Source: Promethearchaeota archaeon | Lineage (GTDB): Archaea > Asgardarchaeota > Lokiarchaeia > Sigyniarchaeales > SOKP01 | Direction: 5' to 3' | Assembly (NCBI GenBank): GCA_048941015.1 | Contig: JBHLNZ010000072.1 | Location: forward strand, 1 to 14,811 | Length of the DNA: 14,811 nt | Shown: in pieces, positions 1,725 through 14,811 of the stretch | How positions within the stretch are numbered: position 1 is the first letter of the stretch | How the letters are laid out: each line of letters opens with the position of its first letter | The notes under the pieces: generated by a model | What the model was told of the DNA's origin: nothing | What the model saw: the letters and a program-made list of their open reading frames with translations, nothing else | The model's database searches: none | Translations under genes and position numbers: made by a program

Positions 1725-3116
<1,392 letters not shown>

Positions 3117-3120
3117 TTAA

Positions 3121-3140
3121 TAAATGAATAAGTTCATTTA
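3121..3140. promoter_or_regulatory. Palindromic candidate operator upstream of tpl
   Basis: TAAATGAA-TAAG-TTCATTTA: a perfect 8-bp inverted repeat with a 4-nt spacer, 26-45 bp upstream of the tpl ATG. Confidence 0.35.
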
Positions 3141-3373
3141 GATTCAAAAAGCTTACTGTAATTTTATCCCATGTTATTCCCATTCAATCAATTAAACTTT
3201 GGATAAATTACGGATTAGGAGTATATTAAAACATAAATTAGCAAGAGCCTCTCCTAAGAATCTCTAGCTTCGAATTAATTCTATTGAAGTAGAAAAATTA
3301 GACCATCATTGTAGACGAGCAGTTAAAGAAATCACTCCCAGCAGAATTTAGGGAAGATGGAAAATTAATGTTT

Positions 3374-3853
3374 TTACTTCCATTTCGTTAAGATCTCTTC
3401 GCGTTGAAATATAGCTCGACTGGTAAAAAACAAGCCTAAGTCGATTATAGCAAGAATTCCTGCAATCAATAGCAATGTGTTAACGTCGAGTGTAATTACA
3501 CTAATTTCGGTAAGTAAATATAGTGCAAAGAATGGAATGATTGTGAGGACTGCTAATTGTTGAGCGGATCGAACATCCTTCACGCGAGAAGAAATTATGA
3601 CGCTTAATTCTATACTCATAATGCATCCTAGGGGAGAATCTAAAAGAATCATAGTCGCAAAGAACCAATTTGGGAAATATATATAACCCACTTTAGTAGT
3701 AGTAAAAATATCCATGAGAACCATGAATATAACAGCACTAATAAATATCATGATTATTACAGCCAGGAATGCTGCTAAACTCTTACCGAGCAAGATTTCA
3801 TCATCAGTGGTCGGAGTCGCTAATAAGGGTTCAAGAGTTTTCTCAGTTTTTTG
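3374..3853 (-). pseudogene. 5'-truncated ABC-2-type transporter permease remnant
   Basis: The frame upstream of the TTG at 3793 continues as QKTEKTLEPLLATPTTDDEILLGKSLAAF (the ABC-2 permease EK..KTLE.LLATP...EILLGK motif), followed by ISSRVKDVRSAQQL and FQREEILTKWK. The N-terminal half is absent, there is an in-frame TGA at 3911-3913 and no ATG, and no ATPase gene is adjacent. Confidence 0.75.
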
Positions 3854-3959
3854 TAAGATAGTTAGTTCCTTAAACGGTATAATTAAATTAATTATATAAG
3901 GCGATACCTTTCAAACCATAAATAAGTAAGTTAATGTGAAATTATAATTATTTAATGCT

Positions 3960-4784
3960 CTACTTCTTTTTAGCTCTTAAGGAAAACATCATTGGAATTG
4001 AAAATTCAAATGATTCAAATTCCCAGTAGCCATCCTCTCTCTTTCGCATGTCAGGATGAATTTGGAAAAATCCAAAAGGGAATTCATGTAGAAATTCTAT
4101 TTCAAGTCCGTTTATTATTAAAGAATTGATTATTTCGCTCATAGGGTGAAACCATTCATAAGTAACTTTGTTTTGTATTTTTTTATCTGTGGATGCATAA
4201 GATGTGTCATCTTCAAATCGAACTGGTTTATTTTCATTAAAATAATTGAAACCTATTTTGAAGCTTTTCTTATAATGCTCATCAACTAGATTTCCGAAAG
4301 GATGTCCCTCGATTATATAGAAAATTCCTCCTGGTTTTAAGAAATGGCTTATAACTTCAGCCCATTTATAAAGATCAGGTAACCAGCAAAGCACACCATA
4401 AGATGTAAAAACAATGTCAAAATTCTCTTTTTTTATTCTTTTTGGTATATCATAAATATTTGAATGAATAAATTCTGAAGATATATTGAGCTCATTACTC
4501 AACTGTTGTGCTAATTCAATAGCTTTATCTGAAAAATCAATACCAACTACTCTGGCTCCCAATCGAGCCCACGAGAGGGTATCCAATCCAAAATGACACT
4601 GAAGATGGAGAAGATTTTTTCCATTAACATCCCCCAATTCTTCAATTTCTATTGGTAAAAGTGAGCTTTTTCCTTCTTTAAATCCTTTTAAATCATAAGT
4701 TTTAGAATTAGAATTAATCTTAACTAATTCATTCCAGCGTTTTAAATTAGTGTTAAAATATCTTTCATTATTCAATATTATCAC
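3960..4784 (-). CDS. Class I SAM-dependent methyltransferase
   Basis: Variant motif I LLHLQCHFGLDTLSWARLGARVVGIDFS, plus FDIVFTSYGVLCWLPDL and LKPGGIFYIIEGHP. GTG start; exact start uncertain. Confidence 0.88.
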   Translation of the reverse strand: MIILNNERYFNTNLKRWNELVKINSNSKTYDLKGFKEGKSSLLPIEIEELGDVNGKNLLHLQCHFGLDTLSWARLGARVVGIDFSDKAIELAQQLSNELNISSEFIHSNIYDIPKRIKKENFDIVFTSYGVLCWLPDLYKWAEVISHFLKPGGIFYIIEGHPFGNLVDEHYKKSFKIGFNYFNENKPVRFEDDTSYASTDKKIQNKVTYEWFHPMSEIINSLIINGLEIEFLHEFPFGFFQIHPDMRKREDGYWEFESFEFSIPMMFSLRAKKK

Positions 4785-4829
4785 AGCAAATAATGGTTTA
4801 AAAGGAATTTTGTGCTAAAGTAATTAATC

Positions 4830-5249
4830 TTATATTTTTATAATTCTTAGTTCTTGTTTTGAATTAGCAGAACCAGCTAAAATAGAATCGTTGATATTTA
4901 AATTACTAAAAGACAATTTGCTATTTTTTGTAATAATACAATTTTCTAATTTGAAATTGTCTCCAATGCTAACATTATCCAATACTATTGAATTGGATAT
5001 TTCTACATAATCTCCGATAATTGAATTCGCTCCAATATACACGTTTGGACCTAAAAGAACATCGTCTCCAATTTTAACTTTTTCTTCCAAATAAACGGGC
5101 TCAATAAAGGTTGGATAATCTCCCAAATAATTATCAACCTTATTAGTTAATTTTTTTAATGTTTTACGGAATAAAGGTAATATATTAAATTCCTTAATAT
5201 TTTCAAGATTCTCACATAATTTCTCTATTTCTTGTATTTCTTCAATCAT
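4830..5249 (-). CDS. Stand-alone left-handed beta-helix (hexapeptide repeat) protein, similar to the C-terminal domain of NDP-sugar pyrophosphorylases
   Basis: Hexapeptide repeats FIEPVYLEEKVKIGDDVLLGPNVYIGANSIIGDYVEISNSIVLDNVSIG. There is no nucleotidyltransferase LAGGxGTR domain. Confidence 0.75.
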   Translation of the reverse strand: MIEEIQEIEKLCENLENIKEFNILPLFRKTLKKLTNKVDNYLGDYPTFIEPVYLEEKVKIGDDVLLGPNVYIGANSIIGDYVEISNSIVLDNVSIGDNFKLENCIITKNSKLSFSNLNINDSILAGSANSKQELRIIKI

Positions 5250-5262
5250 AATAATCCCATTT

Positions 5263-5982
5263 TTAATTAATACCCATCATTTTTATTAATTTATCAATAT
5301 TTTCACCAGTCTTAGCACTTGTTGTTATAATCTCAATAGACGGATTGATTCTTTTAGCGTCAGAAATCATCTTATCAATATTAGTCCCTAATCTTTCTTG
5401 AAGATCGATTTTATTAATTACAGCTATATCAGATGATTTAAAAAGCATAGGGTGTTTTTCAACTACCCATTCACCTTCAGTTATCGAGACGATAACGATT
5501 CTTTTGTCAGTTCCTAAAATAAATTCTGAGGGACATATTAGATTTCCAACATTTTCAATAAAAATAATATCGTAATTCTGTAATTCTTTATTTCTTATAA
5601 TTTGATAGATATGATAAGCATTTAAAGCACATTCTCTACCAGTATTAATTTGAACTGTTTCTGCTTTATGCTTTTCTATGCGATTAGCATCGACTCTTGT
5701 TGTGATGTCTCCACATATAACTAAAAGACGATAATTTGATGCTAGTTTTTCAGTAATTTTTTCTAATATTGCTGTTTTACCAGCTCCAATTGCTCCAACA
5801 ATATCAAATGATTTAATCTTATGATTCCGAAACTTCTTATTTATTTCTTCAGCTAATATCTCATTGTCTCTTTCAACTTCTTTTTTCGTCTGGATAACAG
5901 AATCTCTAATTTCATCTCTTGCTAAATTAGTACTTTCTAGTTCTTTAATTCTAGTGAATTCTTTTTCATCTCGTTCTGACAT
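5263..5982 (-). CDS. hypB: HypB-family (G3E/SIMIBI) metallochaperone GTPase, archaeal type
   Basis: P-loop GAIGAGKT, QINTGREC, IFIENVGNLICP, SITEGEWVVEKHP, INKIDL, TSAKTGENI. Confidence 0.9.
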   Translation of the reverse strand: MSERDEKEFTRIKELESTNLARDEIRDSVIQTKKEVERDNEILAEEINKKFRNHKIKSFDIVGAIGAGKTAILEKITEKLASNYRLLVICGDITTRVDANRIEKHKAETVQINTGRECALNAYHIYQIIRNKELQNYDIIFIENVGNLICPSEFILGTDKRIVIVSITEGEWVVEKHPMLFKSSDIAVINKIDLQERLGTNIDKMISDAKRINPSIEIITTSAKTGENIDKLIKMMGIN

Positions 5983-6036
5983 TTTAAGAATTTCCGTGAT
6001 TAATTCTAGGAATATGTATTTTAAAGAAGTATTGAC

Positions 6037-6044
6037 AAAAAAAA
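6037..6044 (-). terminator. Putative oligo-T terminator after the dehydrogenase gene
   Basis: T8 tract on the minus strand about 22 nt after the TAG at 6067. Confidence 0.3.
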
Positions 6045-6066
6045 TTTTTGATTGTAAGAGTTTATA

Positions 6067-7089
6067 CTAATTTTTCAATTTATTTTCCGTATAACAGGGT
6101 ACTGGAAGATCTTTCATGGTTAATAATCCTGGCTTCGCATTTATTACGATTGGGATTAAATTTGCTACTATTGCTGCAGTTCCTATATCACCATGAACAC
6201 CTCCCACTATTTTTTGATGAAGGGAAGGAATACCGTCTACTTCTATGCTATCATATTCTTCATGGTCACCAGCATAAGCCACGAAATCTAAAACAAAAAT
6301 TTCCTTCTTATCTTTTTTTGCTACTGCTTTACTATTTAAGCCACATACATTGCCTTTGTATACCGTTTCTCCATAAGAGGTTACAAATTCTTTGCTTATA
6401 ATTATTGGATTTGGAGGAAATTCATCTAGAGTGTCATATTCAATTCCTAAAGCTCCAGCAATCATTTGTATTGATTGAATTAAACCAATATGGCCTGTAA
6501 TTTCATTATTATTTATTTTTTCATAAAATTCTTCGACTTTTAGGCCAGTTCCGATTTTGCGTTGAAATGATTCTCTTCGTTTAGCTGAATTTATCATTCT
6601 TGTAATTTTAATGGAGTGCACTTGTTGACAAGGGGCTGTTAAAACAATTGGAAGTAAATCCATTAAATAGCCAGGATTTATTCCCGTTCCAACAATGGTT
6701 AGGCCTTTAGTTAGAGCAATGTTATTTAATTCTTCGGAAATTGTGGGATAATTTTTATAGGGATAAGATAATTCTTCACAGATAGAAAGGACATTACAAC
6801 CTGAGTTTAATGCTTGCTTAATTATTGGTACTACTTTCTCCAGTGAGGATGATGTTGCTATAAAAACTAAATCTATATCCATTTGAGAAAGTATTTCAGC
6901 CAAATTAGATTCCACTTTTAAGCTTGTATCTTTAACATTAAGAATTTCACTTAAAAGTTTTCCTTTTAATGATTTGTCAATATCAATAACAGCTTTAAGA
7001 TCGATATTTTTTCTTTTAATTAGTAAATCCGCGATAATTTTTCCCATTGGTCCTAAACCAACTTGTAGTACATTGAATTTAGTATCCAT
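6067..7089 (-). CDS. NAD(P)-dependent amine dehydrogenase family (2,4-diaminopentanoate dehydrogenase Ord-like / DapB-N fold)
   Basis: Rossmann motif VLQVGLGPMG, GCNVLSICEELSYP, GTGINPGYLMDLLP, KIGTG, GHIGL and C-terminal GGVHGDIGTAAIVANLIP...PGLLTMKDLP. AGGAG SD at 7098-7102. Confidence 0.8.
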   Translation of the reverse strand: MDTKFNVLQVGLGPMGKIIADLLIKRKNIDLKAVIDIDKSLKGKLLSEILNVKDTSLKVESNLAEILSQMDIDLVFIATSSSLEKVVPIIKQALNSGCNVLSICEELSYPYKNYPTISEELNNIALTKGLTIVGTGINPGYLMDLLPIVLTAPCQQVHSIKITRMINSAKRRESFQRKIGTGLKVEEFYEKINNNEITGHIGLIQSIQMIAGALGIEYDTLDEFPPNPIIISKEFVTSYGETVYKGNVCGLNSKAVAKKDKKEIFVLDFVAYAGDHEEYDSIEVDGIPSLHQKIVGGVHGDIGTAAIVANLIPIVINAKPGLLTMKDLPVPCYTENKLKN

Positions 7090-7145
7090 TTATTTTTCTC
7101 CTTATTTTTAATTTTAATCATAAAAGAAATTACTATTAATTTAAA

Positions 7146-8489
7146 TTATAAATTAAACTGAGCTTGAGAAACTGGTTGTCCAATATTTTCTATTACATTT
7201 TGAATTTTCGTAAAATGTTCTTTTTTCTGAGCCATTGATAGAGAGCCTAATCCATGCAAACCAGAGATATTTCGATTAAAAAGAGCTAAATGGAGTAGCG
7301 ATTCTCGTTTTTTATGAGTAAATTCAATTATTTGTTTGATCGAAGGATTTTCAATCCACTTTTTAAGTACATGAAGCATTATGATTGATTTATGCCCTAC
7401 TGCTTTAATCGGTAATTTATTTTCAGTAAAAAATCGATCAAAATTTTTGAGTAATTGGTCTCCTTCTTTATTTATTCTGTCATATTCTTGTTGTGATTTT
7501 TTTAATATTTCTATAGTTTTTAGTCCTGCAACCATACTGAGCGGATAACCTGAAAAGGTACCCCCTCCAATTAAAACTTGATCATCTTCTAAAGGACTAG
7601 AACGTTCTATTATATCTTCTCTACCACCAATCGCACCAATCGGTAATCCACCTCCTATTATTTTACCCATTGTTGTTAAATCTGGTATTATATTTAGTTT
7701 ATTCTGATATAAACCATTCATAAATCTATAACCTGTAATTATCTCATCAAAGATTAAGAGAATATTATTATCCATAGTTTCTTCTCTTAATCTCTTCAAA
7801 AATTCAATTTCAACCGGAAATCCCCCTCCCCCTCCTAAAACGGGCTCTAAAATTATAGCGGCTAAATTATTCTTGTTTCTCTTGATTTGATCAAATATGC
7901 CATCATTATTAATCTCAAAAGTTAATACTCCTGCTTTTTCTGAATCAAGTAGACCTGGCGAAGTTTGACCATTAATTAGACTACCGACACTGTAATATAA
8001 ACTATCACTTGCACCATGCCAACCTAATTTAGCTTTAGCTATTAATCTCTTTCCAGTATAAGCTCTGGCTAATCTTGTAGCATACATTGTTGCTTCTGTA
8101 CCTGTAACACAAAATCGCATCATCTCAATACCTGGATTATTTTGAATGATTGTATCTGCCAATTCAACTTGATATTTGGTTAAAGTTCCAAAATGCCATC
8201 CTTTTGATAAGTGATCCTTTATTTCTTGTTGAATTATTGGATGATTATGGCCTAGAATCATAGCAAAATGACCGTTCCAACAATCAAGATATTCATTACC
8301 ATCAATATCCTTTAAAAAAGGTCCATTCGCAGATTCAATAAATATCGGAAAACCACCAATTAAATTTAAATTAAAGGTTCGAATAGTATGTGAAATGCCC
8401 CCAGGTAAGACTCTAAGTGCTTTTTCCCAGAGTGATTTTGATTTCATCCTATTTTTTTTATAAAGTTCTAACTCTTCTTGAATAAACAT
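7146..8489 (-). CDS. Class III PLP aminotransferase, glutamate-1-semialdehyde aminomutase-like
   Basis: DIDGNEYLD, ILGHNHP, RFCVTGTEATMYATRLARAYTG, LLIFDEIITGYR, PLP-lysine DLTTMGKIIGGGLPIGAIGG and GGTFSGYPLS. Divergent from canonical HemL and with no hem genes nearby. Confidence 0.85.
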   Translation of the reverse strand: MFIQEELELYKKNRMKSKSLWEKALRVLPGGISHTIRTFNLNLIGGFPIFIESANGPFLKDIDGNEYLDCWNGHFAMILGHNHPIIQQEIKDHLSKGWHFGTLTKYQVELADTIIQNNPGIEMMRFCVTGTEATMYATRLARAYTGKRLIAKAKLGWHGASDSLYYSVGSLINGQTSPGLLDSEKAGVLTFEINNDGIFDQIKRNKNNLAAIILEPVLGGGGGFPVEIEFLKRLREETMDNNILLIFDEIITGYRFMNGLYQNKLNIIPDLTTMGKIIGGGLPIGAIGGREDIIERSSPLEDDQVLIGGGTFSGYPLSMVAGLKTIEILKKSQQEYDRINKEGDQLLKNFDRFFTENKLPIKAVGHKSIIMLHVLKKWIENPSIKQIIEFTHKKRESLLHLALFNRNISGLHGLGSLSMAQKKEHFTKIQNVIENIGQPVSQAQFNL

Positions 8490-8612: not shown

Positions 8613-9173
8613 TTAAACATCATCCATTCCATAGAAATCTAAAGCTAAAGGAATTTGATGCCTATGGAAATAAAGTGATTCTAAAGATTTATTTAATAGA
8701 TAATTGTAAAAGAGCGTTATTAATTCTTGCAAAGATAATTTTTTAAGATGATTTCTATTATTGATATCGATAGAAAGGTCTTTCGAATTTCTTATTTTAT
8801 CAATAATTACGTTATAACATTTAAAAGGATTTATTTGATGAAGAAATTCAATTAAAGGTATGATAAATAATCCCGTTTCATTAATTATTATATGAATTAT
8901 AGGATTAATTGCTTGAATTGGAAAATTTCTTTTTAGTACTTTAAAAGCAGCAAATCTTACGGATTTGTCAGGCTCAGATATAAATATATTTTCTAGAAAT
9001 TCAAATATTTTAATACTTTTAGGATTAATTTTATTAATATATCTAAGGGATTCTATTCTCTGAGCATCATTATTACTCGTTTCTATTATGAAAATCAAAA
9101 AATCTAATGCTGCTCTTTTACTTAAATATGCATTTTGATAATATTGATAAACCTTTTTTGGAGAGTACATCAT
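8613..9173 (-). CDS. HEAT-repeat-like helical protein
   Basis: RIESLRYINKI...FLENIFISEPDKSVRFAAFKVL resembles PBS-HEAT repeats and, from recall, the N-terminal module of Lokiarchaeal LRR proteins. No LRRs follow. Confidence 0.65.
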   Translation of the reverse strand: MMYSPKKVYQYYQNAYLSKRAALDFLIFIIETSNNDAQRIESLRYINKINPKSIKIFEFLENIFISEPDKSVRFAAFKVLKRNFPIQAINPIIHIIINETGLFIIPLIEFLHQINPFKCYNVIIDKIRNSKDLSIDINNRNHLKKLSLQELITLFYNYLLNKSLESLYFHRHQIPLALDFYGMDDV

Positions 9174-9315: not shown

Positions 9316-9876
9316 ATGATAATGGTTGAAGATACCGAAAAAATTGAAATAATTGATAAAACAGAGAATAATTCTAGATTAACTCCACTTTTGAATATTT
9401 TTTGCTCGATTTTTGTAATAATCCTTGCTGGGATGGGATTTATATTATTTTTAATATATCCCTATTCACTTATGGGCTTTTTCATTAGTCTTTTCACCAT
9501 TTCAATTATGATGATGTATTTATTTTATCAATCAAAATCAAAAGGAATTATCAGAAAATTTACCCTTACCCCTTTAGATATTGAATTTTTAATGCCCAAT
9601 AAACCATATTTCCATATCAAATGGTCCGAATTTGATAAAATTGAGATAATCTTAAAAAAACTTGAAATGAAGCCTTTTGAAGTTTATGAGCTCCATTTTA
9701 TTAAAAACGATTCAAAAAGGTTATTTAAGTTTAGTATTCTTGACTTCAATAAGGCAAATTCGTCTCAGATCTTATATTTATTAAAAACCTATGCTAAAAT
9801 AAATAATAAAGAATTTAAAGCTCAAAAAGAAAGATTGATTTCTGGAATAGTCTTAGTGGAGGATCTTATAATATAA
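9316..9876 (+). CDS. Membrane protein: two N-terminal TM helices plus a soluble, possibly PH-like beta domain
   Basis: Two hydrophobic segments (about aa 25-50 and 52-70), then FTLTPLDIEF...FHIKWSEFDKIEI, a pattern typical of prokaryotic PH-like domains. Confidence 0.65.
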   Translation: MIMVEDTEKIEIIDKTENNSRLTPLLNIFCSIFVIILAGMGFILFLIYPYSLMGFFISLFTISIMMMYLFYQSKSKGIIRKFTLTPLDIEFLMPNKPYFHIKWSEFDKIEIILKKLEMKPFEVYELHFIKNDSKRLFKFSILDFNKANSSQILYLLKTYAKINNKEFKAQKERLISGIVLVEDLII

Positions 9877-9917: not shown

Positions 9918-11258
9918 TTATTCAACTCTTGCACCACAATTAGGACAAACATGAGCATTAGTTAAAGTTGTTCCACATATCTTACAAAGTTTAATTAATC
10001 TCTTTTTTGGTGGTTTTAATGAAGTTATTGAGATTTTCTCTTGAACCTGTGTGCTTTCTTCTGGAATGGATATAATAGTTTCTGAAATTTCGGGGACGAT
10101 ATTCTGATGATTATTTTTTGGTTTTATTTCTATTTCTTGGCCAAAATACCCACCAATTCTAACTTTTTTAGGTGTTAATTCTTTATCTTGATCAGATAAA
10201 CTTAAAGATTCTGTTTCGATATATTCATCATTATGACCGAGTGAATCTTCTAAAAAATCTTCATCAATTACCTTTTCCTCATAAAGTTCGTTTTCAGCCA
10301 TACCTAAATTGGATTCACTTTCCTCAAAAATCTCACGTTTATCCTGATCTTCTTCATATATTAGATTTACAATATCTTCATCCAATTTCAATAAAGTATC
10401 ACATTGAACGCATCTAAAAAGATGCTTGAAACCAATATTATTAGAAATAGAATATTCAGCAGCACAACATGTATGATATTTAATATTACAATTATAACAT
10501 TTATGGATTTCATCAGAATGGGCATCACATATTGGACATAATTCCTGCTGGCATATATCACATATTTCTTTATCTTCAGAATCTAGAGATATTAAATCAA
10601 CAGCTAGTCTTTCATAAAATGTTTTATCTTCTTCTAAAATATAATCGTCTTGATCAGGTTGAATAACATTAAATTCTGTTTTACTTTGTACCAGTGAAAT
10701 AAGGATATTTGGAAATAATTTTGGATCATTACAATAAAAAACACCACTATGAGTTTCAGATGATATCACTTTTAGTTTAACATCATCATCATAAAATTTC
10801 GCATCACCTATCCGAATAATATCAATAAAAGTATCAAAGCGTCTAGCTTTTATTAACAAATCATAGAGAGCAGTGTGGTAATCTTCAGATAATTTACTTG
10901 GAGTATCAGAAATTATTATAATTCGATAATTTTTTCTAGCTTTTTGACTTTTTCTGAAAACATAAGATAAGATCTCAAATAACCCATTTTCTAAATAACT
11001 CTGTTTAATTTCTCGCTCATCCCACTTATCATTTATAACCTCAATTACTGGGTCAATAATTTTTGCATCATAAACCGTAATTGGAGCCCCCTTTTCTTGA
11101 AATAAAAGTACACCGTAAGAACTAAGAGAGTTATATTTTTCTTTTTCCTTAGTAAATCCACTTATACCTTTTATTAGAGGTTTTTTTTTAAGAAAATCAG
11201 TAAGAAGATCAACATAAAAGATAAATTCTTCCGAATTTATTGTTATTTTCCTAAACAT
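9918..11258 (-). CDS. vWA-like domain + PHD/RING-like zinc finger + acidic linker + C-terminal zinc ribbon (paralogue B)
   Basis: vWA strands FIFYVDL, YGVLLF, RIIIISDTP, FIDIIRIG, ISSETHSGVFY. Cys cluster CDIC-CPIC-CYNC-x4-H-TCC-RCVQC (10401-10562). C-terminal CKIC...CPNC. SD-like GGAAGGG at 11261-11267. Confidence 0.8.
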   Translation of the reverse strand: MFRKITINSEEFIFYVDLLTDFLKKKPLIKGISGFTKEKEKYNSLSSYGVLLFQEKGAPITVYDAKIIDPVIEVINDKWDEREIKQSYLENGLFEILSYVFRKSQKARKNYRIIIISDTPSKLSEDYHTALYDLLIKARRFDTFIDIIRIGDAKFYDDDVKLKVISSETHSGVFYCNDPKLFPNILISLVQSKTEFNVIQPDQDDYILEEDKTFYERLAVDLISLDSEDKEICDICQQELCPICDAHSDEIHKCYNCNIKYHTCCAAEYSISNNIGFKHLFRCVQCDTLLKLDEDIVNLIYEEDQDKREIFEESESNLGMAENELYEEKVIDEDFLEDSLGHNDEYIETESLSLSDQDKELTPKKVRIGGYFGQEIEIKPKNNHQNIVPEISETIISIPEESTQVQEKISITSLKPPKKRLIKLCKICGTTLTNAHVCPNCGARVE

Positions 11259-11307
11259 ATCCCTTCCAAATCAAATTAGATAAATATATTCAAAAAATAC
11301 ATTAAAA

Positions 11308-11318
11308 TTATATAAAAA
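11308..11318 (-). promoter_or_regulatory. Putative TATA box for paralogue B
   Basis: Minus strand TTTTTATATAA about 50 nt upstream of the ATG at 11258. Confidence 0.35.
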
Positions 11319-11404
11319 TTATAACATAATTTTTATTTATGCTTATTGAAAAATATTAATCTTATTGCTAGTAATGAATTTCTAAGTAATCAAAGTGAAT
11401 AGAG

Positions 11405-11410
11405 AAAAAA
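11405..11410 (-). terminator. Putative oligo-T terminator after paralogue A
   Basis: TTTTTT immediately follows the TAA at 11411 on the minus strand. Confidence 0.3.
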
Positions 11411-12772
11411 TTATTCTAATAACTTATGACCACAATAAGGACAGGAATTATTAACTTTTTCTATGCTCTTAATAAGAGTCCCACATTGAGGACATCTAAT
11501 AATATCTTGTACTGGGTATTGTTTTACACCATCTTTAGATAGTACTGATGGTTTACGATACTTGATTTTATCTACTACTCTTTCTAATGTTGTTATTTTT
11601 TTTTCTATCTTTTTATCTCCATCAGAATCAGAAGGTGTTTTAATGATTTTTCGATAAACAATCTTATCACCTTCTTTAGAAACTGCATATATTTTTCCAA
11701 AAAATCCTCCTATCCTAACATTTTTTGGTTTAAGAACTTCAGGTTTTTCATCTTTAGTTCTATTATGTAAAGAAACTTCTGATTGGTGAGTTTCAGTAAT
11801 ATTTAAAATATTTTTCTCCAACTCTTGTTTTATAAATTTTTCAGCTGATTCAATTTGTGAGTTTTCAGGAATTACAATGTCATCTTGATTGATTTTTAAT
11901 AGAATATCGCAACTAGGATTTGGACAACGAAAAATATGAGGTATTCCAATATTGTTTTGTATAGCGTAATTAGTTATACAGCAGTTGTGATAACAACTTC
12001 CGCAATCTTCACAGATTAATGGAATATCATTAATATCTGTACAAACTGGGCATATATCTTCTTTACAAAAATAACACTTTAAATCTTGTTGCTCGAGAGA
12101 GGGAAAAATTAAATCTTTTGCGAGATAAGAATAGAAGTCATAATCATCCTTACTAATTTTAACTTTAGATATTTTATCTCCAGAAATTTCTAAATCTTGT
12201 TTTACTATTATTAATTTTTTAATTATTGAAGCAAAATCCTTCTTTTCATGGACATAGAAAATTTCACCATTAGTATCGCTAGCAAGAATGTTTAATTTGA
12301 CATCATCTTTAAAAAATCTTTTTGATTTATCTGAAATCCTAATTATGTCTATAAAAGTTGGAAAATTTTTGATTTTTGAAACTAGATTGAATAACGCTTC
12401 AGTGTATTCTTCTGATAAGTCGCTTGGAGTATCAGTTATAACAATTATTCTATTTTGTTTGGACTTTTTTCTTACTGTTTCGGCTATATATGAAAAACAG
12501 TAAAATAAACCATTTTCAAAAAAAGATTGTTTCTTTGGACGTGTTTTCCAATTCTCTTCAATAGCATTTGTGATTATATTCGAATCTTTTTTGCCCGTTA
12601 TAAAGATGGGATCACCTTCTTCTTGAAAAATCAGTAAACCATAATGTCCTTTAAGATTTATCTTATTTTTTTCTGCTATATAGTTTTTTATAGCCTTTAT
12701 TAAATCTTTTTTCTTTAAAATTTCTTTTGTTAAATCCAAATAGAAAAAAACATCTTCATAAAAAGCGCTCAT
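11411..12772 (-). CDS. vWA-like domain + PHD/RING-like zinc finger + linker + C-terminal zinc ribbon (paralogue A)
   Basis: VFFYLDL, YGLLIF, RIIVITDTP, FIDIIRIS, LASDTNGEIFY. Cys cluster CYFC-CPVC-CEDC-x4-H-NCC-RCPNPSC (11909-12076). C-terminal CPQC...CPYC. Colinear with 9918-11258. Confidence 0.8.
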   Translation of the reverse strand: MSAFYEDVFFYLDLTKEILKKKDLIKAIKNYIAEKNKINLKGHYGLLIFQEEGDPIFITGKKDSNIITNAIEENWKTRPKKQSFFENGLFYCFSYIAETVRKKSKQNRIIVITDTPSDLSEEYTEALFNLVSKIKNFPTFIDIIRISDKSKRFFKDDVKLNILASDTNGEIFYVHEKKDFASIIKKLIIVKQDLEISGDKISKVKISKDDYDFYSYLAKDLIFPSLEQQDLKCYFCKEDICPVCTDINDIPLICEDCGSCYHNCCITNYAIQNNIGIPHIFRCPNPSCDILLKINQDDIVIPENSQIESAEKFIKQELEKNILNITETHQSEVSLHNRTKDEKPEVLKPKNVRIGGFFGKIYAVSKEGDKIVYRKIIKTPSDSDGDKKIEKKITTLERVVDKIKYRKPSVLSKDGVKQYPVQDIIRCPQCGTLIKSIEKVNNSCPYCGHKLLE

Positions 12773-12925
12773 AAATGTAAAAATAACTCCAGATAATAAT
12801 TTAATTAAAGAATATTTTCTTTAATTATTTTTTATCTTACAAAATTTAAATAATAGATAGTTATATTACTTATTAATAAAAGTGAGAAATCTTCATAGAA
12901 ATAGAAAAAGAGTGAATGTATTAAA

Positions 12926-14811
12926 ATGGAGCAATTCTTAAAACAATTACATCTGTCTGAAAATGCAATTAAAATTTATCTTCAATCATTAGGTCGTTTA
13001 CCCTTATCATTTTTTGAGCTAAACTCAATAATACCTAATTTATCTAAAGGAGATTTTCAAAATACAATTAATGAACTTGTTGAACAAGGTTTATTGATCC
13101 CTATTATTCCTCAAGCTCCTGAAATTGTACCGCAATATCTAGCCATTCCTCCTTTTAATCCGATAATATCTTATATTTCAAATATTAATGCTAACCTTGA
13201 AAGCATTAAAAATCAATTACATCAATTACTAGCTAATACCCTTAAAAAAATTTTTCAGCAAAATGTAATTATAGAATTAGATACAACCTTTACAGCCATC
13301 CATGAGCTAAGAAAAGATTTTGAAGAAGAAACCATTATTCAAAAACAAGATGTTGATGATATTGTTCAAGGAATGGAAAATCTTAAAGTAACAGAGCAAA
13401 TTTTAAATGATCTTCATCAGACTGTTAAAGGGTTAATCCAAGTTGAGTTTTCTAATTTAATTAAGCTAATTACAAACCTAAAAAATGAGATACTTAAAAA
13501 TTTAGAATTGATAGATTTAAAGAAGCAAGAACAAGAAGTAATAATGGTTATAGAGAATGTCTTTAAATCAAATTTAGATAAACTTCTAAAAGATTTTACT
13601 ATAAAATTATATGAATTAATTGAAACAGAATTTACAAACACTATTGAATCATTAAATAATATTATAAGTTCAACTTTTCGCTTTAGGGATGATTTTAAAA
13701 TGCTTTTAGTTAATATTTTAAATAATTTTGAAATCAAAATTAATAATATTACAGAATTCATTAAAAAGAAGAAGGAAACTCTTTCAGATGATCTAAATTC
13801 ATTTGAACAAGCAATCGAGAAAAGTTTTGACCAAATAATCCGTAATTCAGTAGAATCTGTAGCAGCATTGAATAATCCTATTGATAAATTAATGAAAGGC
13901 TATTACTTAGCAATAACTAAATCTGATGCAGTAAAAGTTAATGATTTTTGGCTAGTCAAGAATTTATCTCGTGTAAATGAAGAGATTAAGAACCTTATTA
14001 ATAATTCAAAGAATGAACTAACTTTAATTCTACCCAAGATTGAAAATCATTTAGAATTAGAACAATTTAAGAAAATTTCTAGTACTCTAAAGATAAAGAT
14101 AGCTTCCTCAGAAGCTCATACTAATAGTAATGTAAAGAAGTTTAAAGAGATAAAAGCTTTGGAATATAAAATGCTTAAAAATGAAAATATTATTATAATG
14201 AAGGGAGACGATAATTATATCGTTATAGGAGTTATTGAAAATAAAAGAGATTTTATGAATAATTTCATTGGATTTGGAAGCAATAATAAACCATTAATTA
14301 ATTTGATTGAGCCTATTATCAAAACTACATGGAATATAGCAAGTTCTGATTTGTATGAAGCTCCTAAATCTATTGGGATGAAGAAAACAGAAATTAGTAA
14401 TGTTGAAGTATCTAAACCTGAAACTTTAAAACCATTTAAGCCAATTCCGGAACCTAAATCAGTTTCACCTGCTGATTCCTCTTTAAATGTAAAAAAGGGC
14501 CAATTTATTAGTCCAAGTCAAACAGTTATTAGAGAGAATGATTTTTCACAGAAAATTCAACACCAAGTAAGTTTTACATCAAAAGTATCACCTAAAGAGG
14601 GAAATGATACTAGTAATCTTATAAGTAATGCATTTTATACTTTAATCCAGAAGTTAGGTACCTTAAAGGGCTATCAATTTAGTCAAGAATTACAGAGTGT
14701 ATCTGACTTAATATTAGAAAAAAAAGGATTTTCTACAACTTTACATAAGTTAAGAAGTTTAATCCTTAAATATAAAGAAAATAATTCAGTTTTAAATCAA
14801 ACAGAGATAAA
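12926..14811 (+). CDS. Large multidomain protein (partial, >628 aa): TrmB-like winged HTH + long helical/coiled-coil region + PLD-like (TrmB effector-type) domain + Pro/Ser/Lys linker + helical C-terminal domain; not in ORF track
   Basis: Open frame from ATG 12926 to the window end. MEQFLKQLHLSENAIKIYLQSLG...INELVEQGLL...YLAIPP is a TrmB HTH pattern. About 250 aa of amphipathic helix follow, then FWLVKNLSRVNEEIKNLINNSKNELTLILP...MKGDDNYIVIG (PLD-like fold, no HKD motif). Confidence 0.85.
   Translation, partial: MEQFLKQLHLSENAIKIYLQSLGRLPLSFFELNSIIPNLSKGDFQNTINELVEQGLLIPIIPQAPEIVPQYLAIPPFNPIISYISNINANLESIKNQLHQLLANTLKKIFQQNVIIELDTTFTAIHELRKDFEEETIIQKQDVDDIVQGMENLKVTEQILNDLHQTVKGLIQVEFSNLIKLITNLKNEILKNLELIDLKKQEQEVIMVIENVFKSNLDKLLKDFTIKLYELIETEFTNTIESLNNIISSTFRFRDDFKMLLVNILNNFEIKINNITEFIKKKKETLSDDLNSFEQAIEKSFDQIIRNSVESVAALNNPIDKLMKGYYLAITKSDAVKVNDFWLVKNLSRVNEEIKNLINNSKNELTLILPKIENHLELEQFKKISSTLKIKIASSEAHTNSNVKKFKEIKALEYKMLKNENIIIMKGDDNYIVIGVIENKRDFMNNFIGFGSNNKPLINLIEPIIKTTWNIASSDLYEAPKSIGMKKTEISNVEVSKPETLKPFKPIPEPKSVSPADSSLNVKKGQFISPSQTVIRENDFSQKIQHQVSFTSKVSPKEGNDTSNLISNAFYTLIQKLGTLKGYQFSQELQSVSDLILEKKGFSTTLHKLRSLILKYKENNSVLNQTEI

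Follow-up and report, generated by a model that had tools for sequence, protein, structure and literature searches.

In a 14,811-nucleotide stretch of Lokiarchaeia DNA (the window), two adjacent genes, here termed A and B, encode paralogous proteins that combine a von Willebrand factor A (vWA) domain with a RING/PHD-type zinc finger and a C-terminal zinc ribbon. The window belongs to a 3.59-Mb, low-GC Asgard metagenome-assembled genome (MAG; G000). The pair is a look-alike of the TFIIH pair p44/p34, not its ancestor. As to function, we tentatively favor, at somewhat less than an even chance, a lineage-specific, hetero-oligomeric, RING-based, ubiquitin-ligase-like adaptor or scaffold.

Gene A (9918..11258) encodes 446 amino acids (aa) and gene B (11411..12772) 453 aa; both genes, and all of their features located below, lie on the reverse (-) strand. 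Each protein consists of a vWA domain, a RING/PHD finger of putative three-zinc type, a linker, a beta-meander and a zinc ribbon. Genes A and B were each taken from an open reading frame (ORF) and its translation. The initial annotation of the window had described paired, co-oriented vWA and zinc-finger genes of one architecture, and this observation is confirmed: both ORFs are in place, their products align end to end as paralogues (34% identity, E 2e-76), and the colinear motifs quoted in that annotation are present in the A-B alignment. With B as query, A and B were the sole copies detected in their own genome. Orthologues are 55-98% identical for A and 55-77% identical for B. Across 28 aligned B orthologues, the first 300 residues are highly conserved and the Cys/His array is invariant; a variable linker, a VRIGGFFGK...KEGDK block and a C4 ribbon follow. 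Pfam leaves the two proteins nearly blank, with B alone matching VWA_2 (E 0.014) and Zn_ribbon_3 (E 5e-5), and a search of NCBIfam gave nothing useful.

The vWA domains (about aa 11-195 of A, 10674..11228; aa 5-190 of B, 12203..12760) are colinear. An AlphaFold2 model built on the B-orthologue alignment gives residues 5-190 the classical vWA order of strands and helices, and A and B share the Rossmann-like alpha/beta fold that characterizes the vWA superfamily. The metal ion-dependent adhesion site (MIDAS; DxSxS ... T ... D) is not found in A or B, and D-x-S-x-S is kept solely by the branch of the paralogues C and D described below. Residue profiles bear out the degenerate site that had been read from both proteins: A has D17-L-[LI]-x-D, with SDTPS at the end of beta4, and B has D13-L-T15-K-[DE]17, N87 and D114. 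Without its metal site, the domain is probably a plain protein-docking surface. Foldseek and VIA rank p44, Tfb4 and p34 highest for the A/B vWA. The structural scores lie close together (p44 18.9-17; ArnB 17.3; Rpn10 17.3; Sec23 16.2; integrin I domain 16.1; p34 15.9), and p44 is the leading structural match by a small margin over Rpn10, ArnB and integrin I domains. The structural comparison proposed in the initial annotation therefore puts TFIIH subunits on top, but with these other folds nearly equal. Among the named ESM Atlas clusters from outside the Asgard archaea, TF2H2/Ssl1 (0.85-0.89) and Tfb4 (0.82) come closest, and they serve as leads only. Searched against PDB sequences, the B-family profile returned PHD/RING and ribbon matches only, and no vWA, p44, p34 or Rpn10.

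The zinc finger that follows is a C4HC3 cross-brace (C233 to C286 in A, 10401..10562; 11909..12076 in B). The ligands in B are C233, C236, C254, C257, H262, C265, C283 and C288, and all 62 rows of the wider superfamily share these eight, two of them with His in place of C265. B retains C-x-[FLI]-C, Y269 and C-P-x-C; in A the Pro of the last motif is replaced by V or I. An Asp follows the last Cys in both proteins. Four extra ligands (C241, C244, C264 and H279) are invariant in A and B, and the full set is confined to the A/B-like clade, where most members have it. Their invariance suggests, at the level of sequence, a third zinc site. The finger has a RING fold, and its structural neighbors are mostly RINGs, the nearest being the RING E3 domains of FANCL and Listerin; Foldseek with the finger model gave no match at E<=0.001. 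It also has the features of a PHD finger, namely the C4HC3 pattern, C-x2-C-x4-H-x2-C spacing and an aromatic residue two before ligand 7 (conserved as F281-R-C283), and its best PDB sequence matches are the PHD fingers of KDM5D (0.0085) and MTF2 (2.5e-4).

A second model, covering residues 196-453 on a 73-row alignment, gives pLDDT values of 95-98 for the finger, about 84 for the beta-meander and 91-95 for the ribbon. The meander of B is three-stranded (aa 350-376, 11645..11725; strands 155-180 of the second model) and corresponds to the conserved VRIGGFFGK...KEGDK block of the B alignment. In A, a conserved VRIGGYFG beta-strand motif lies within the variable linker (10104..10163), and the consensus across both proteins is VRIGG[FY]FG. 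The C-terminal C4 zinc ribbon is located at 9933..9986 in A, where the match to Zn_ribbon_3 is weak and the Cys columns are invariant, and at 11429..11494 in B.

Distribution and phylogeny place the origin of the pair within a narrow group. Four families (f1-f4) of the window's own order were compared, f1 being the window's own family and f3 its sister family. Strong matches to the A+B profile were found in 129 of 134 f1 genomes, 14 of 14 f3 genomes and 4 of 4 f4 genomes. The sole f2 genome has a weak match only (1.3e-14), as do genomes elsewhere in Lokiarchaeia, and about 240 genomes from other classes of the phylum have no match. The tandem pair is confined to f1. Among closed f3 genomes, G135 and G143 have a single A/B-like gene and G138 has two dispersed ones; these genes are never in tandem and never beside N647, the divergent neighbor of B. 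The trees join the A clade (98) to the B clade (100) as its sister, inside a clade (99 SH-aLRT) that leaves out the f3 genes, and the f4 gene falls in an outgroup clade. Because A and B are sisters to the exclusion of f3 genes, the duplication occurred within, or at the base of, f1, and it is therefore not the duplication behind p44 and p34. Orthology of A/B to the p44/p34 pair is excluded by these trees, and the lineage-specific duplication that the initial annotation had counted against its own proposal is what they recover. A and B are thus a clean example of a paralogous vWA and zinc-finger pair that arose independently of p44/p34. Almost all genomes of one family within Lokiarchaeia have kept these vWA-RING proteins, and the restricted distribution of A/B limits its bearing on eukaryogenesis. 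As a separate observation, several MAGs of one NCBI batch (accessions JBHL...) titled Hodarchaeota, Odinarchaeota, Thorarchaeota or Hermodarchaeota carry B orthologues that are 52-70% identical. One of them, L008 ('Candidatus Hodarchaeota archaeon DZ1B.201'), is identical to G261, a genome placed in the window's own genus, and such phylum labels seem unreliable.

More distant paralogues were found in the same genome by a search with Pfam Ssl1, which returned genes C (G000:C122, 397 aa) and D (G000:C105, 390 aa). Both have an intact DxSxS, a RING/PHD finger and a C-terminal Prok-RING_1 finger (33.8 bits), and match Pfam VWA at 63.6 bits. Their matches to Ssl1 (PF04056; cut-off 27) are marginal: the genome search scored them at 31.6/30.2 bits and hmmscan at 29.8/28.6 bits. 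Those to Tfb4 (PF03850; cut-off 27) fall below the cut-off, at 23.3/14.9 and 22.6/16.4 bits, respectively. A/B are demonstrably homologous to C/D by sequence comparison: aligning the B family with the C/D family by hhalign yields 99.75% and E 2.5e-27 over 279 columns spanning the vWA domain and the finger, and the core C4HC3 ligands are shared. The finger of C/D bears the full I/W/P RING signature. C/D end in a second finger (Prok-RING_1), whereas A/B have the beta-meander and ribbon there, and the genes for C/D are dispersed and class-wide, whereas A/B are tandem and family-restricted. C-type genes occur throughout Lokiarchaeia and are absent from the genomes of other Asgard classes searched.

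A full HMMER profile search across 1.84 billion representatives yielded 210 matches, which grade without a break from A/B into C/D by way of intermediates, and BLAST likewise connects the A/B group to the C/D group through these intermediates. Among the 150 matches listed of those 210, all are vWA-RING superfamily members or fragments, and at this sensitivity none connects to a generic vWA or eukaryotic family. In PDB sequences, the C/D profile matches Rpn10/S5a (1.7e-18), a bacterial vWA (4rck; 1.1e-14) and p44 (3.7e-14), followed more weakly by Ssl1 (8.5e-10), MERIT40 (1e-7), integrin/ArnB (about 1e-6) and Tfb4 (5e-3). This order indicates a vWA of the Rpn10/p44 kind, with Rpn10 nearest by sequence. 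Members of unusual build are also present in the superfamily: P0339 joins a patatin-like phospholipase to a vWA of the A/B type, and P0340, P0342, P0343, P0353 and P0358 (~1,100 aa) have a vWA, finger and ribbon followed by ~650 aa without a Pfam match.

The genomic neighborhood was compared in 80 loci with B. The constant unit is N647(-), B(+), A(+), while the genes downstream vary. N647 adjoins B in 77 of the 80 loci, and A is present in 71; the other nine have no separately called A and are mostly at the ends of contigs or fetched stretches. The initial annotation had looked to synteny across Asgard genomes: the unit is indeed constant in f1, but no relative was found in the genomes searched from other Asgard classes. 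In the window, N647 (12926..14811, + strand; ~650 aa) is cut by the window end, and a full-length copy is found at L008:3892-5865(-). Its layout, judged by eye, comprises a TrmB-type winged helix, a ~250-aa coiled coil, a TrmB-regulator/PLD-like region and a C-terminal helical domain. Pfam gives no match to N647; in its own ESM Atlas clusters, 25-33% of members carry PF01978 (TrmB), and farther neighbors are TrmB regulators. Orthologues occur in 131 of 134 f1 genomes, co-distributed with the tandem pair, and several weaker paralogues are present per genome. The divergent spacer between B and this TrmB-like gene (12773..12925) is 153 bp long, against a median of 154 bp across 77 loci, and contains a conserved ATATTTAA-like block near B. 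N647 probably regulates the A/B pair or partners with it. The spacer between B and A (11259..11410) is 152 bp long, against a median of 153 bp across 71 loci; owing to a conserved A/T-rich block within it, gene A may have its own promoter.

Other genes around the pair give a varied picture. Two 186-aa ORFs without a Pfam match, 8613-9173 (-) and 9316-9876 (+), lie between gene A and an aminotransferase gene; in 30 of the 80 loci, a homologue of the latter lies shortly after the end of A in convergent orientation, and one of the former is found in 7 loci. Beyond them, at 1725-8489 (-), are six co-directional genes, encoding a class-III aminotransferase, a 2,4-diaminopentanoate dehydrogenase-like protein, a CobW/HypB-type GTPase, a hexapeptide transferase, a methyltransferase and a beta-eliminating lyase. 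This block looks like an amino-acid (ornithine/lysine-type) catabolic cluster and recurs, partly or wholly, downstream of the A/B pair in many loci. An anti-phage defense system was considered and rejected, as A, B and N647 have no PADLOC match at E<=0.01 and the conserved neighborhood consists of ordinary metabolic genes.

In the adaptor-or-scaffold role that we favor, A and B would be made together and act as a hetero-oligomer, possibly with one partner's finger resting on the other partner's vWA, like the p44 RING on the p34 vWA. The finger would be a C4HC3 RING type enlarged by the probable third zinc site, and the linker would be flexible. Heterodimeric RING ligases have one E2-binding subunit and one supporting subunit. 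The Pro of C-P-x-C is kept in B and in most single-copy f3-type genes and is gone from A, and on this basis the pair can be likened to such ligases: B, keeping the ancestral E2-contact-like residues, would be the active subunit, and A, having lost one of them, the supporting one. The complex would bind a client and deliver it to an E2-like enzyme from the ubiquitin-type system of Asgard archaea, or simply scaffold a larger assembly. At least four E2-like genes are encoded in the same genome (UQ_con 90.6, 88.2, 37.1 and 27.9 bits). Since the two building blocks combined in this family are ones that serve eukaryotes in TFIIH, in the proteasome and in ubiquitin ligases, its members are candidate substrate adaptors or E3-like components for the poorly understood Asgard ubiquitin-type system.

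Several observations weigh against a ligase-like role and lend themselves to another explanation, in which A and B form a structural scaffold that resembles p44/p34 in action but not in descent, has no ligase chemistry and possibly works on DNA with N647. The linchpin position is occupied by Asp, with no linchpin Arg in A or B, and this together with the extra zinc site argues for caution; the MIDAS-less vWA combined with that zinc site points to a structural role; and no ubiquitin-system gene adjoins A/B in the window or in the 80 loci. The conserved pairing with N647, a helix-turn-helix and coiled-coil protein, also fits a scaffold. However, B and the ancestral single-copy genes conserve residues like those through which RINGs contact an E2, the relatives C and D bear the full RING signature, and the interaction of N647 with A or B is putative. 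The purely structural p44/p34 mode (PMC5737387) is a serious rival model, to which we give a real but clearly minor share of the probability.

Genes next to other superfamily members raise a further explanation, that the family regulates or carries out steps of small-GTPase and cytoskeleton pathways, for example as an E3 or adaptor for Ras/Rag-like GTPases. In three genera of f3, an A/B-like gene is divergent to a Ras-family GTPase gene (Pfam Ras 138-151 bits), beyond which lies an actin homologue (Pfam Actin 265-280 bits), at L099:7791-9829 (G135), L100:4074-5864 (G143) and L101:4394-6295 (G138). Gene C is likewise divergent to a gene for a Gtr1/RagA-Arf-like GTPase of ~400 aa in its own genome (L110:5836-8446) and in three sister-family genomes (L104, L105 and L106), a pairing not seen in two other orders of the class. 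Yet the A/B pair in f1 has no GTPase neighbor, the actin orthologue of the same genome (G000:C24, L121:7061-8176) adjoins neither a GTPase nor a vWA-RING gene, and three other superfamily clades lack an adjacent GTPase, although their contigs are short and the contexts uninformative. Asgard genomes abound in small GTPase genes, so some chance adjacency to them is expected. We regard this explanation as rather unlikely.

The remaining readings fare worse. It is quite improbable that the Lokiarchaeial vWA-RING superfamily is the nearest prokaryotic sister, or even the source, of p44/Ssl1 and/or Rpn10, with A/B a parallel p44/p34-style heterodimer bearing a new three-zinc RING; in favor of this stand the matches of the MIDAS-bearing C/D branch to Rpn10 (1.7e-18) and p44 (3.7e-14). 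A role for A/B as Rpn10-like ubiquitin receptors or proteasome-associated vWA proteins, to which the C/D profile might point, is very doubtful: no ubiquitin-interacting motif (UIM) or other ubiquitin-binding motif was detected in A/B, the A/B profile alone does not find Rpn10, the RING and ribbon architecture is unlike Rpn10, and no proteasome gene lies around A/B in the window. Hardly credible is a true counterpart of TFIIH p44/p34, sharing descent with the Ssl1/Tfb4 pair and acting with archaeal XPB/XPD in transcription or repair, for which the Foldseek, VIA and ESM Atlas leads, the narrow passage of C/D over the Ssl1 cut-off and the DNA-binding-type TrmB neighbor speak, but whose pair orthology is contradicted by the A/B split within f1; the window holds no helicase gene. 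A Sec23/24-like reading was rejected, the Sec23/24 architecture (Zn finger, trunk vWA, beta-sandwich, helical and gelsolin domains) being absent from A and B.

Compared with named systems, the p44/p34-like counterpart put forward by the initial annotation survives as a likeness of vWA structure, but not in sequence or descent. A and B have no match to Pfam Ssl1 in hmmscan at E<=1 or in a six-frame genome search at E<=10, and none to Tfb4 or C1_4. Their finger is nearer to those of FANCL and Listerin than to the p44 RING, they add a beta-meander and a zinc ribbon, and their duplication is an independent one, confined to one archaeal family. Rpn10/S5a (PSMD4) has UIMs but neither RING nor ribbon; the sequences of A/B have diverged too far to match it, and the likeness appears via the C/D and superfamily profiles only. 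The C4HC3 fingers of RING E3s (FANCL, Listerin, Nse1, Slx1 and RING-CH) lack the four extra conserved ligands of A/B, in which an Asp stands behind the last Cys, the spacing fits a PHD finger equally well and a ligase role is putative. By analogy only, plant RGLG1/2 and WAV3-family ligases resemble A/B in joining a vWA-type docking domain and a RING in one polypeptide, but differ in domain order and vWA subtype. WAV3 is a eukaryotic ligase with vWA and RING (PMC12852372). Our literature search found no published description of the vWA-RING family, whose architecture is a variant, not seen before, of known vWA and RING designs.

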